Assembly: GCA_963677105.1 (NCBI GenBank)
Contig: OY781871.1
Coordinates: forward strand, 90,001 to 122,000
DNA: 32,000 nucleotides
Reading direction: 5' to 3'
From: Candidatus Saccharimonadota bacterium
GTDB taxonomy: Bacteria; Patescibacteriota; Gracilibacteria; UBA4473
The translations under genes and the position numbers were made by a program. The notes beneath the pieces are model-generated. The model worked only from the letters and a program-made list of their open reading frames with translations. It made no database searches and was not told the origin of the DNA. The stretch's first letter is position 1. Each line of letters begins with the position of its first letter. Positions 18,403-21,498 of this stretch are shown in pieces.

Positions 18403-18429
18403 TTAGCAGTCGAATTATAAGAGTGCTAA
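18403..18429. promoter_or_regulatory. CIRCE operator (HrcA binding site)
   Basis: TTAGCAGTC-N9-GAGTGCTAA against the consensus TTAGCACTC-N9-GAGTGCTAA: one mismatch and exact 9-nt spacing. It lies 18 nt upstream of the dnaK ATG. Confidence 0.9.
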
Positions 18430-18441
18430 GAGTCCTGTCAA
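18414..18441 (-). promoter_or_regulatory. dnaK promoter overlapping CIRCE
   Basis: The minus strand reads TTGACA (18441-18436), 16-nt spacer, TATAAT (18419-18414). The -10 lies inside the CIRCE spacer. Confidence 0.7.
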
Positions 18442-18457: not shown

Positions 18458-18486
18458 TTGACAATAAACATATTTTCCGTTAGAAA
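18458..18486 (+). promoter_or_regulatory. candidate promoter for 18493..19431 (leaderless geometry)
   Basis: TTGACA (18458-18463), 17-nt spacer, TAGAAA (18481-18486), then 6 nt to GTG 18493. Confidence 0.45.
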
Positions 18487-18492
18487 CCGAGC

Positions 18493-19431
18493 GTGACTAT
18501 CAAAACTTTCCTGTATCGGTGTCTCCATGAAACTTCTTCTCCAGAGGGACATGTTGTGAATGGTTTGTTAAGTTTTTTAATTATGTTTTCTATTGCAGTT
18601 ATTCCGCTGCATTTATTTTCAAAAGTACCAGATCATAAATGGATCGAATCGAGCTTATTTCTTTTTGAGCAAATCTCCGTTTCTATTTTCACTATTGAAT
18701 ATTTACTCCGGATTTGGTCAAATAAAAAAAGATTAGGATTTATTCTTTCTTGGGAAGGAGTCGTTGATTTGGTTGCAATTTTACCATTTTATTTTGAAAA
18801 ATTTGGTATTGGATCTTCTCCAGAAATTTTTGTACTCCTACGACTGTTACGTATTTTGAAATTTTCAGTGATGTACGGAAAAGAACAATCTGAAATATTA
18901 TCTCATAATGCAGCTATCAAACATGGAGCATTTTATTTATTGAAACAGGAAAAAATTGAACAAATTGTACAAAAACATCCAATTATTTTTCTCTTAGGAC
19001 TTCTTTTTCCCCTTTTCTTTACCAGTACCGGATTAATTATAGTTCTCTTTACTTATGGCACACCGCACGAAACCATTTGGTTTGCTTTTTCTATTGTTTG
19101 TTTTTCCCTTTCCATAATATTTTTTTACAAAGCATGGCTTGATTATCAATACGACGTAATTTATATAACCAATTTCCGTGTAATTTTACAACAACACGAA
19201 TTGTTTGGATCAGAGACAAATGGATTAACATATGATTCTATAACGAATGTTGTACCGAATAATCGAGGATTTTTCCGTTGGGCGCTGGGGCTTGGACATA
19301 TTGAAATTGAAACGGCAAACAGAGACGCAACATTAGTTTTCCAAAACGTTCAACATCCACATAAGGTAGTAAGTAAAATTTCTGAAAATCGAATCATGCA
19401 CGAACAAGCAAGTGAACGTGAAATGAATTAG
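18493..19431 (+). CDS. voltage-sensor-like (S1-S4) domain fused to a 2-TM bacterial PH (YdbS/YdbT-type) module; no pore domain
   Basis: Ion_trans-like S2 ([11 protein letters not shown]), S3 ([10 protein letters not shown]) and S4 ([13 protein letters not shown]; R117, R120, K123 at every third position). No T-x-G-Y-G filter follows. Instead there are two TM helices and a bPH_2-like segment ([20 protein letters not shown]...DSITNV...[11 protein letters not shown]...FQNVQHP). Confidence 0.7.
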
Positions 19432-21380
19432 CTTCCTGAAGTAAATTTTCTAACAATTTCTTCTTTTGCTTTTTCCATAATTTTTCCTTTTAACGTTGGT
19501 TTTTCTGTTGTTGTTTCTTCTGTTTTTTCTTGTATTACTTCTGCTATATCTTCCCCTTCTTCTATTGATGTATCAGAGGAAAATATTCCCGCCAAAGACT
19601 TCTGTTCATCACGATCAATTTCTTCTTTTCTTTTCCTGTCTATTTCTGCGAAAAAAGCTTCCCGTTCCGGAGCATATTCACCAGCTTCTACTGCTTCTTT
19701 GATCGCTATAAGATATTTTTGTTCATCCGTCAGTACAGCATCAACCATTTCTGATCTCACTTCCGATTTCACTTCTTCCACATCATCACCAAAAAATTCT
19801 CCCAAAGTAGCCATCATTAAATTCATTCTCAATGCCCATTTTCCACCAGCAGTCATTACAATTTGTTTCTTCGTAGTTTTGCTAAGACCACGTGAAAAGA
19901 GTTTTCCTCCTGCTTTTGCTGTTTTTCGTGAGAATAATTTTCCTCCCGCTTTTACAGAATTTTTTGCTACTTGTTTTAGTGCTCCTTTTCGTATTCCACC
20001 TCGAAGAAAAGAACCACCTGCTGTACGTGCAGCAAGTATTGGTGCACTTGCCGTTCCCAATGAAGCAACAATTCCCACAACCGTTGCTACGTCCATTCCC
20101 AACGAAAGTCCAAATTCTGTCCATTTACTCCATGCTGGATTATCATCTTTTTTGAGTAATCGTTGTCCACTTCGAATTGTTCCCCAAATCGGGCACGCAT
20201 CTTTCCAATTGTCGACATCTTTTACTTCTTCCCAAAAAACACCAAGTGCCCTCGAAATCCCACCTCCTTCTGCACCTTCTCGAAGTGCTTTTCCCAGAGC
20301 TGACCCAACTATTTCCACCATCATAAATCCTCCTCGTTGTTTGATAGAAACTCCTGGAAGATATTTTTGAAATCCTTCCATTTTCATAAATTCTGGACCA
20401 AATTGTTTTGTTCCTGCTTGTACTGAATGTCGTGCAATCTTACGAATTTGATTTGCTCGTTCTACAGAAGTGTATTTATCTGCGTTTCGAGTAAGATTCG
20501 ATAATTGTCGCAAATAATTTTTGGAAATCATTACCGCTCCAGGATTTTCTTCAAAAACAGCACTAAATGCTATTTTCTTCGTTTCAATTCCTTGATTTAT
20601 TTTTCCCTCTACTTCTTCATATTCCTGACGACGTTCTTCCAATCTTTCTTTTACCAATTCTCCTTGTTTAATTTTTTCAAGTGCCCCCGTTTTTTTAAAC
20701 TGTTCAAATACTTTCCAACTTTTGAATGTAGAAATTACTGCCGGGAAGAAAGCAAATACTCGCCAAAAAACATTTCTCTTTTTTCTTTCCCCTGTTTCTT
20801 CATCATATTCTATTTCTGTGTTTTTCCATGCTTCTTTTATGGCGTCCATTGTTCCATATTTTTCATATTTTTTTTCTTGTGCCTTAATGTGTTCGAGCCA
20901 ATTATCAACTTTTTCTTTGGGTTCAAATTTCCATTTTTTATCCACTTCTTCGTCCAAGGCTTCCATCTCTTTTTTTGTATTCACTGCCGCCACAATAGTA
21001 TCATTTACTCCTTTTAATTTTTCTTCATCAGTTATTATCTCAACTCCCTGATCGACTGTTTCCGCAACCATTTCTTGTCCTTTTTTTCCTATAAATTTTT
21101 TCCCTAAAAGTAATCCAACTCCTCCTCCAATCACCCACTTCATTCCTCGTCTCCACCATGGTCTTTTTTTTGCCTCTTCTTCTGTTTCTGCTGCAATTTC
21201 ACGTTTTCCAATAAACGATTCGGAAACCGCATCTTTTATCTCCAGTGCTTTATCTGTTTCATGTCTCAAACCAATTGTTTCTGCCAATTTTTCGACTTCA
21301 GGTATTCCTTCTGATTCTTTTAAATCTTTAATTTTTTCCATTACGTCTTTTGCCGCAGTAATTTTTGATGTAATTCCCAT
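19428..21380 (-). CDS. large orphan membrane-associated protein (about 650 aa)
   Basis: Uninterrupted ORF to 21395 (TTG); the first ATG is at 21380. K/E-rich helical regions, hydrophobic segments (WVIGGGVGLLLG; LSLGMDVATVVGIVASLGTASAPIL) and an internal duplicated motif KAGGKLFSR. No family recognised. Confidence 0.65.
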   Translation of the reverse strand: MGITSKITAAKDVMEKIKDLKESEGIPEVEKLAETIGLRHETDKALEIKDAVSESFIGKREIAAETEEEAKKRPWWRRGMKWVIGGGVGLLLGKKFIGKKGQEMVAETVDQGVEIITDEEKLKGVNDTIVAAVNTKKEMEALDEEVDKKWKFEPKEKVDNWLEHIKAQEKKYEKYGTMDAIKEAWKNTEIEYDEETGERKKRNVFWRVFAFFPAVISTFKSWKVFEQFKKTGALEKIKQGELVKERLEERRQEYEEVEGKINQGIETKKIAFSAVFEENPGAVMISKNYLRQLSNLTRNADKYTSVERANQIRKIARHSVQAGTKQFGPEFMKMEGFQKYLPGVSIKQRGGFMMVEIVGSALGKALREGAEGGGISRALGVFWEEVKDVDNWKDACPIWGTIRSGQRLLKKDDNPAWSKWTEFGLSLGMDVATVVGIVASLGTASAPILAARTAGGSFLRGGIRKGALKQVAKNSVKAGGKLFSRKTAKAGGKLFSRGLSKTTKKQIVMTAGGKWALRMNLMMATLGEFFGDDVEEVKSEVRSEMVDAVLTDEQKYLIAIKEAVEAGEYAPEREAFFAEIDRKRKEEIDRDEQKSLAGIFSSDTSIEEGEDIAEVIQEKTEETTTEKPTLKGKIMEKAKEEIVRKFTSGS

Positions 21381-21498
21381 AAAGGAGAGTTTCAAAAAAT
21401 ATCAAGTAATTATACCTCAAAAAGCACTTTTAATCAAGCTTCATCACAATCAAAACAGTAACCAAACACTCCAAATTACAAATTAGAAAACTTCAAAC

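Follow-up and report, generated by a model that had tools for sequence, protein, structure and literature searches.

The window analysed here, a 32,000-nucleotide stretch of contig OY781871.1 (assembly GCA_963677105.1, Candidatus Saccharimonadota bacterium), encodes a 312-amino-acid (aa) membrane protein in which a voltage-sensor domain (VSD) is joined to a transmembrane (TM) hairpin and a bacterial pleckstrin homology (bPH) domain of the bPH_2 type. We refer to it as the VSD-bPH protein. A 107-bp spacer separates its gene from the divergent dnaK; at the other end the gene is convergent with a 655-aa gene, beyond which lie yebC and a pseudouridine synthase gene (Table 1). An earlier note on this DNA had proposed such a fusion from the letters alone; the open reading frame (ORF) lies where it was placed, and the motifs quoted map to residues 66-73 (FTIEYLLR), 90-99 (a 10-letter S3 motif) and 117-123 (RLLRILK), with a 17-letter motif from the C-terminal part at residues 218-234.

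Table 1. Features of the VSD-bPH locus in window coordinates (AF2, AlphaFold2).
Feature	Coordinates	Strand	Residues and details	Basis
VSD-bPH gene, VSD + two TM helices + bPH_2 fusion protein	18493..19431	+	312 aa; GTG start, TAG stop	
S1	18541..18621	+	residues 17-43; helices 17-35 and 37-43, kink at invariant P38	AF2/DSSP
S2	18643..18720	+	residues 51-76; E59, F66, E69, R73	AF2, conservation, Kv4.2 alignment
S3	18751..18801	+	residues 87-103; D92, P98, motif DLVAILPFY	AF2, conservation, Kv4.2 alignment
S4	18820..18855	+	residues 110-121, on to K123; R117, R120, K123	AF2, conservation
S4-S5-linker-like helix, then variable linker (sensor/effector junction)	18856..18948	+	helix 122-137, linker 138-152	AF2
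Pre-hairpin beta-strand and K-H-P motif	18949..18981	+	residues 153-163; strand 155-161	DSSP, hhalign, conservation
TM hairpin	18982..19152	+	TM5 164-186, outer loop, TM6 193-220; no P-loop or selectivity filter	AF2, hhalign
Cytoplasmic bPH_2-type bacterial PH domain	19153..19356	+	residues 221-288	Pfam, AF2, Foldseek, hhalign
C-terminal capping helix of the PH fold	19357..19425	+	residues 289-311	AF2
Candidate promoter	18458..18486	+	TTGACA 18458-18463, 17-nt spacer, TAGAAA 18481-18486, 6 nt, then GTG	by eye
Convergent stop overlap	19428..19431	.	4 nt, TTAG (TAG on +, TAA on -)	sequence
655-aa convergent gene	19428-21395	-	no Pfam or NCBIfam match	

The N-terminal ~125 residues are a canonical S1-S4 voltage-sensor domain of the type found in voltage-gated K+ (Kv) channels. 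Pfam Ion_trans (PF00520) matches residues 25-124 with E=2e-9 and 37.4 bits (gathering score 25), which places the Ion_trans similarity suspected in the earlier note above threshold, and the match spans profile positions 7-105 of 241, that is, S1-S4 only. The best sequence match in the PDB is Kv4.2 (E=3.4e-7), whose S2 (FTvEYlLRl) and S3 (iiDvvAIlPyy) align residue by residue with the 312-aa protein, and nearly all of the matches are voltage-gated K+ channels. A profile of the family gave Kv4.3 as its best PDB match (E=3.8e-20), followed by Kv2, Kv1.2, Kv3, Kv7 and bacterial voltage-gated Na+ (Nav) channels, all within family-profile positions ~5-132. An AF2 model of the 312-aa protein, built on 44 family sequences, has a mean predicted local distance difference test score (pLDDT) of 92.5, exceeding 90 across most of the VSD, and a predicted template-modelling score (pTM) of 0.87. 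DSSP assignment of this model gives a short N-terminal helix followed by the four TM helices S1-S4, and in Foldseek the model matches structures of Kv1.3, Kv2.1, Kv4.x (Kv4.3) and KCNQ, in agreement with the four-helix fold that had been predicted.

Conservation, counted over 132 family sequences of ~30-70% identity, bears out the assignment of the earlier note at the level of individual charge-transfer-centre and S4 residues. In S2, the outer acid E/D59 is kept in 127 of the 132, the hydrophobic plug F66 in 128, the inner acid E69 in 130 and R73 in 126; in S3, the countercharge D92 is kept in 127 and P98 in all 132. The S4 charges fall at every third position, with R117, R120 and K/R123 each present in 128/132, and a fourth basic residue, at position 126, occurs in 71/132 relatives and is not found in the 312-aa protein. 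S1 has a near-invariant S33 (126/132) and a conserved N23. The spacing E59-x6-F66-x2-E69-x3-R73 is that of E283, F290, E293 and R297 in Shaker. The loops and N-terminus of the family, by contrast, vary freely (entropy 2.8-3.0 bits). That the voltage-sensing residues are near-invariant while the loops are variable points to purifying selection on voltage sensing, and to a sensor that is no relic.

A selectivity-filter pore, the absence of which had also been claimed, is indeed not found. The Ion_trans match stops at the profile position given above, the loop of the TM hairpin has just 6 residues, and the pore family PF07885 is matched by Pfam neither in the 312-aa protein nor in any family member listed. 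The VSD is nearest to the sensors of ordinary six-TM (6TM) Kv channels, with 44% identity over 131 residues.

In place of a pore, residues 148-307 form a complete unit of the YdbS/YdbT type. An hhalign comparison with the nearest bPH_2 relatives outside the family aligned exactly these residues with 99.6% probability (E=2.4e-24), and the stretch of homology runs from the pre-hairpin strand through the two TM helices and the junction motif into the PH domain. As it includes both TM helices, TM5 and TM6 belong to the bPH_2 unit and not to an S5-S6 pair, and a degenerate S5-S6 pore is thereby ruled out. Together with the hairpin in the AF2 model and Foldseek matches to the solved bacterial PH domains 3dcx and 3hsa (root-mean-square deviation 2.5-3.1 Å over ~85 columns), this substantiates the claim that two TM helices and a bPH_2 domain follow the VSD. 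The corresponding Pfam assignment holds for the family and not for the single sequence: the 312-aa protein alone stays below threshold for bPH_2 (18.3 bits versus 22) as well as bPH_3 (22.2 versus 23), whereas a precomputed PF03703 match is present in 13 of the 120 homologues listed.

The two halves meet in a 15-residue linker (138-152) with the lowest pLDDT of the model (76-79) and an entropy of 2.4-2.9 bits. Beyond it, the most conserved segments of the C-terminal half are the pre-hairpin strand with its motif (1.4 bits; E153 invariant, K161-H162-P163 conserved) and the junction in which TM6 ends, W215-L-D217-Y-x-Y220-D221 (1.0 bit). Counted as larger parts, the bPH domain and this membrane-proximal junction are the best conserved (1.0-1.8 bits); the domain is a beta-sandwich in the model (222-287), with T226, R229 and G268 invariant, and the outer loop joining TM5 to TM6 is not conserved. 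DUF304-type bPH domains seem to be without beta1 (Xu et al. 2010, PMC2817789). We infer that strand 155-161 completes the PH sheet in our model as this 'missing' first strand, a beta1 placed across the inserted hairpin, because a DSSP strand consists of hydrogen-bonded residues and all the other strands of the model are located in the bPH domain.

The fusion is a conserved, clade-specific family and not a one-off. A homologue search covering 5.8 billion proteins returned ~110 full-length clusters at 90% identity (~300-366 aa, 30-69% identity, E down to 1e-139), after which scores drop abruptly to 6TM Kv channels (PF00520 + PF07885) that match the sensor only, at E ~1e-14. A profile search of 1.84 billion representatives gave ~40 full-length representatives plus fragments among its best 150 matches; the other matches among these 150 were to the sensor half (multi-repeat Nav, Cav or TPC-like and 6TM channels) or to the C-terminal half. 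Scanning with a family-specific peptide pattern located the family in 54 species-representative genomes labelled Gracilibacteria, 'Altimarinota', Peregrinibacteria or Peribacteria, with a few labelled just bacterium or Patescibacteria. These labels are consistent with a single lineage of the candidate phyla radiation (CPR).

The architecture had been put forward as new, and we found it neither curated nor named: no curated NCBIfam model matches the 312-aa protein, family members carry source names such as 'ion transporter', 'hypothetical protein' or 'membrane protein YdbS with pleckstrin-like domain', and open-access papers and bioRxiv yielded no description of VSD-bPH proteins or of the related proteins with a cyclic-nucleotide-binding domain (CNBD) discussed below. 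It thus appears to be undescribed within the literature searched. A phage origin of the gene was considered and rejected, as a scan of viral contigs gave VSD-only matches and no full-length fusion. Those matches were on ten IMG/VR contigs (L062-L071) and involved the VSD part only (query residues within ~9-171), with no bPH unit; the proteins are presumably virus-encoded and channel-like. Equally rejected was a role as an anti-phage defence effector resembling the CNBD+TM proteins of Pycsar, with PADLOC reporting 0 families both for the 312-aa protein and for an archaeal fusion protein described below (P0237). The CNBD-bPH relatives do match PADLOC models, through the CNBD only.

The C-terminal unit also has relatives outside the family. 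All 23 of the nearest have bPH_2, and 16 of these 23 have an N-terminal CNBD, usually followed by two hairpin-bPH units. Their homology to the 312-aa protein starts at residue 148 by hhalign, and the KHP motif, hairpin and junction align with the RRHW motif, hairpin and DWxND motif of the relatives. The 16 CNBD-containing relatives thus indicate that the bPH unit has repeatedly been placed under a classical channel-gating sensor, with the same entry point. These proteins (P0213, P0222, P0248 and 13 others in alignment A2) are uncharacterised, measure 400-840 aa and combine the CNBD with two TM-hairpin/bPH_2 units.

The order VSD, hairpin, bPH_2 also occurs in five sequences of archaeal type, 250-328 aa long: P0237, labelled Woesearchaeota (gene at L060 6001-6987), P0266-P0268 (P0268 possibly partial) and P0220. 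P0237 and P0220 exceed the Pfam thresholds for both domains. The P0237 locus includes an IF-2 homologue carrying GTP_EFTU_D4, as IF5B of archaea and eukaryotes typically does. The CPR and Woesearchaeota fusions probably arose independently, to judge from BLAST of the separate halves. The archaeal VSD scores 135 bits against ordinary Kv channels (52-57% identity, with 50-59% for the group as a whole) and 127-141 bits against its own group, but no more than 84 bits against the CPR family; the VSD of the 312-aa protein scores 78 bits against Kv channels and 54 bits against the archaeal fusions. The C-terminal unit of the 312-aa protein reaches 55 bits against CNBD-bPH proteins and has no BLAST match to the archaeal unit, which is of a different subtype, with RPSRK instead of the KHP and WLDYxYD motifs. 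Recurrent fusion would be a strong argument for functional coupling between the sensor and the hairpin-bPH unit.

The genomic neighbourhood offers no constant partner. Synteny with dnaK, the 655-aa gene and yebC is kept in most relatives above ~40% identity and in none of the Peribacteria-type loci (29-36% identity), which rules out dnaK or the 655-aa gene as a family-wide partner. The Peribacteria-type loci (L037-L058) instead have an HD/HD_assoc phosphohydrolase gene upstream on the same strand and a convergent M23 peptidase gene downstream, with genes for a GT1 glycosyltransferase and a YfiH-like (Cu-oxidase_4) protein nearby, and the neighbourhood of P0237 differs from both CPR arrangements. 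No neighbour gene conserved family-wide was found across near-clade and Peribacteria-type loci, nor a conserved neighbour of any transport family in the loci examined. A second bPH gene next to the VSD-bPH gene is absent from the window and from relatives' loci, and the examined family loci show no bacteriocin or ABC-transporter context. With no partner gene shared by the whole family, the VSD-bPH protein most likely acts alone.

The stop codons of the VSD-bPH gene and its convergent neighbour overlap as had been noted, and the same 4-nt overlap is seen in L001 and L005, for which gene calls were examined. The neighbour itself is not the 650-aa orphan it was taken for: it encodes 655 aa, and fast-evolving homologues of it (22-55% identity) are present in 22 related loci, in every case in convergent orientation to the VSD-bPH gene. 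In its product, a hydrophobic stretch is rich in Gly and Ala, and KAGGKLFSR occurs twice as an internal duplicate. On the other side, dnaK has a perfect sigma-70 promoter on the minus strand (TTGACA, 16 nt, TATAAT; 18441..18414), and a CIRCE-like inverted repeat of the HrcA operator type, TTAGCAGTC-N9-GAGTGCTAA at 18403-18429, overlaps this promoter. The repeat is conserved upstream of dnaK in L006 and L007. The dnaK promoter stands back-to-back with the candidate VSD-bPH promoter, ~28 bp apart.

The GTG start at 18493 is supported by the alignment of the N-terminal 30 residues with homologues, and the two closest relatives of the gene likewise start with GTG. The public gene call (P0001) is 282 aa, a length that fits a start at M31, after the 30 codons at 18493-18582; on the evidence of the alignment it looks 30 codons too short. 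The earlier note had also described leaderless promoter geometry. The hexamers and their spacing are there, and the whole layout of -35, 17-nt spacer, -10 hexamer and 6-nt distance to the start is shared by L006 and L007 (TAAAAA, GTG start) and L008 (TAAAAT, ATG start), with ~10 nt between -10 and start in L009; the -10 is weak, and a promoter consensus scan made no call for this gene because the -10 is without its final T, its perfect sigma-70 call being that for dnaK. The dnaK leader also seems to be without a Shine-Dalgarno sequence. With this comparative support, a leaderless or near-leaderless mRNA is plausible for the VSD-bPH gene. Genetic code 25 (TGA = Gly), suspected from the Gracilibacteria labels of relatives, is ruled out by TGA positions: the ORF has no in-frame TGA, and in-frame TGAs throughout the window all precede a start or sit at natural protein ends, so that TGA is a stop and the standard code applies. 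In a 50%-identical relative (L001/L002), what is apparently one and the same interval (1202-2428) is given as one 408-aa TGT protein by NCBI and as proteins of 267 + 140 aa by Logan. In that relative TGA is probably a sense codon (code 25), in which case the family would span lineages with different genetic codes.

Taken as a whole, the VSD-bPH gene is best explained as encoding a self-contained sensor-effector for membrane potential, a reading to which we assign a probability of roughly 45%. The more general statement, that a functional VSD regulates a YdbS-type module, is very probably correct. A change in membrane potential would move S4 past the F66 plug, and this motion would pass through the interfacial helix 122-137 to TM5 and to the pre-hairpin strand, itself predicted to be part of the PH beta-sheet, so that the TM-hairpin/bPH assembly would switch conformation or packing. 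Solved soluble bPH domains (bPH_1) form C5 or C12 rings (PMC2817789), and by analogy the assembly probably forms an oligomeric ring in which hairpins occupy the centre and VSDs the periphery. We tentatively favour, at somewhat less than even odds, an output in which the assembled hairpins form a non-selective conduit or export path that voltage opens. Four considerations lead us there: the unit has repeatedly come under channel-type sensors (apparently twice under a VSD, and under a CNBD); soluble bPH domains form rings, and TM-anchored bPH families have been proposed to be transporters or pores whose PH domain mediates oligomerisation (Xu et al., PMC2817789); the YdbS/YdbT-like proteins DdE/DdF are required for export of leaderless bacteriocins (PMC8657885); and a ring would place hairpins centrally and VSDs peripherally, as in Kv channels. 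It is a bolder and rather doubtful step to suppose that the hairpin + bPH_2 unit is in general an unrecognised gated conduit, an alternative to the P-loop pore that has been wired at least twice to a VSD and also to a CNBD.

Several points weigh against this account. S4 of the 312-aa protein has three charges in register, and most family members have three or four, so that sensitivity to voltage may be modest. At 2.2 bits, TM5 and TM6 rank with the less conserved segments, and neither has a conserved polar or charged residue, a pattern unlike that of a selective pore. No bPH_2 protein is known to form a pore or to conduct, and none has a known molecular mechanism. The independence of the archaeal fusion rests on BLAST scores for each half, and unequal evolutionary rates could mimic the result for the VSD; its structure model, from a 4-sequence alignment, has a pLDDT of 52 and is unusable.

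The same TM helices without pore-like conserved polar residues, set beside the better-conserved bPH domain and junction, would suit voltage-dependent signalling or scaffolding without conduction, similar to Ci-VSP, in which the bPH domain binds or releases a protein, peptide or lipid and the hairpin is an anchor. PH-like domains are typically interaction modules, and a conserved protein-binding surface has been predicted on bPH rings (Xu et al., PMC2817789). Such a signalling role is nevertheless unlikely in our estimation, as the family has no conserved partner gene and the hairpin is homologous in all relatives, which is more than an anchor needs given the four helices of the VSD; the CNBD-bPH relatives, moreover, retain their hairpins although the CNBD is soluble. 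The low S4 charge count can also be turned towards the idea that the VSD is a degenerate channel remnant, a voltage-insensitive membrane anchor for a YdbS-like protein. This we regard as very improbable, given that the voltage-sensing residues are the most conserved over the 132 sequences while loops vary, and that a similar fusion recurs in archaea.

Hv1 is a pore-less VSD with three S4 charges, features that the 312-aa protein shares, and the C-terminal domain of the 312-aa protein is likely to oligomerise. The VSD might therefore be the permeation path itself, for protons or an 'omega' current, with the hairpin-bPH unit oligomerising or regulating it as the coiled coil does in Hv1. The sensors that it matches, however, are those of Kv and Nav channels, with no Hv1 or VSP among 50 PDB matches or the best 60 of 161 profile matches. 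Hallmarks of Hv1 are an S4 signature, RxWRxxR, and an Asp in S1 as selectivity filter; S4 here reads LLRLLRILK, without the tryptophan, and the mid-S1 residue, putatively equivalent to Hv1 Asp112, is Ser33 (126/132) and not Asp. The family instead conserves the full set of plug and countercharges typical of non-conducting Kv sensors, and conduction through the VSD would leave the CNBD fusion of the hairpin-bPH module unexplained. We consider it improbable. More improbable again is that the protein is the sensor subunit of a split channel or transporter, conferring voltage dependence on a separately encoded pore. The closeness of its VSD to ordinary 6TM Kv sensors speaks for this, and in compact CPR genomes partners need not adjoin; but no transport family is represented by a conserved neighbour, the VSD packs confidently on its own hairpin in the AF2 model (pTM as above), and no precedent is known to us.

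A VSD-bPH protein acting as sensor and effector in one would matter in several ways. At domain level its halves belong to the VSD superfamily and to the bPH_2 family; what appears to be new is the coupling of a VSD to this effector, in prokaryotes. A compact, 312-aa prokaryotic VSD with a different effector would widen the repertoire of electromechanical coupling and provide a small, probably tractable system for structural work. Membrane proteins with bPH_2 (YdbS/YdbT) are widespread and linked to envelope stress and leaderless-bacteriocin export, and the fusion gives a handle on them: that one unit occurs both under a VSD (apparently twice) and under a CNBD argues for a switchable effector, and voltage or cyclic nucleotides (cNMP) would serve as an experimental trigger for the hairpin-bPH unit. 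If the hairpins do form a conduit, the family would represent a voltage-gated channel or exporter of a new class, confined to ultra-small episymbiotic prokaryotes, and bPH_2/YdbS/YdbT proteins would gain their first mechanistic assignment. The CPR and DPANN organisms have tiny genomes and few sensory systems, and one may speculate that sensing membrane potential matters for a host-attached lifestyle.

Among known systems, the closest counterparts of the N-terminal half are the VSDs of Kv channels (KvAP/MVP-type 6TM channels; Kv4, Kv2, Kv1.2), with which it shares the S1-S4 fold, the acidic/Phe/acidic/Arg set in S2, Asp-x5-Pro in S3 and S4 basic residues at every third position; its identity to the sensors of prokaryotic Kv channels of 236-263 aa is 35-44%. 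It differs from them in lacking S5, P-loop and S6 as well as PF07885, in having a bPH_2 module after the S4-S5-like helix and in carrying three or four S4 charges. Stand-alone sensor modules have been noted earlier in prokaryotic genomes, without functional study. To our knowledge, characterised non-channel VSD proteins (VSP, Hv1, SLC9C1, TMEM266) are very few and all eukaryotic. Like Ci-VSP/TPTE, Hv1, SLC9C1 (PMC10620092, PMC6052114) and TMEM266, the VSD-bPH protein joins a VSD to something other than a P-loop pore and would follow the same general logic, in which S4 motion drives a module through a linker. Unlike these four, it is bacterial (CPR), with an archaeal counterpart, and uses a hairpin + bPH_2 unit as effector. 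It has none of the phosphatase, coiled coil or exchanger of Ci-VSP/TPTE, Hv1 and SLC9C1 (Pfam finds no PTEN-like phosphatase or C2 domain of the VSP type in the 312-aa protein), and its VSD is Kv-like by sequence, not Hv1- or VSP-like.

The C-terminal half has its counterparts in YdbS/YdbT of B. subtilis, DdE/DdF of E. faecalis and PF03703 (formerly DUF304) proteins at large, which share the basic-His-Pro/Trp segment, the TM hairpin and the cytoplasmic bPH_2 domain; in contrast to YdbS/YdbT and DdE/DdF, the VSD-bPH protein has a single unit, an N-terminal VSD and no paired ydbS-ydbT-like gene. The CNBD-bPH proteins resemble it in setting a channel-gating sensor N-terminal to the pre-hairpin strand of a homologous unit, and depart from it in their sensor, their two tandem hairpin-bPH units and their greater length. 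The VSD-bPH_2 proteins of Woesearchaeota have the same domain order and a similar length, and in them both halves are likely to be of different origin from those of the CPR family.

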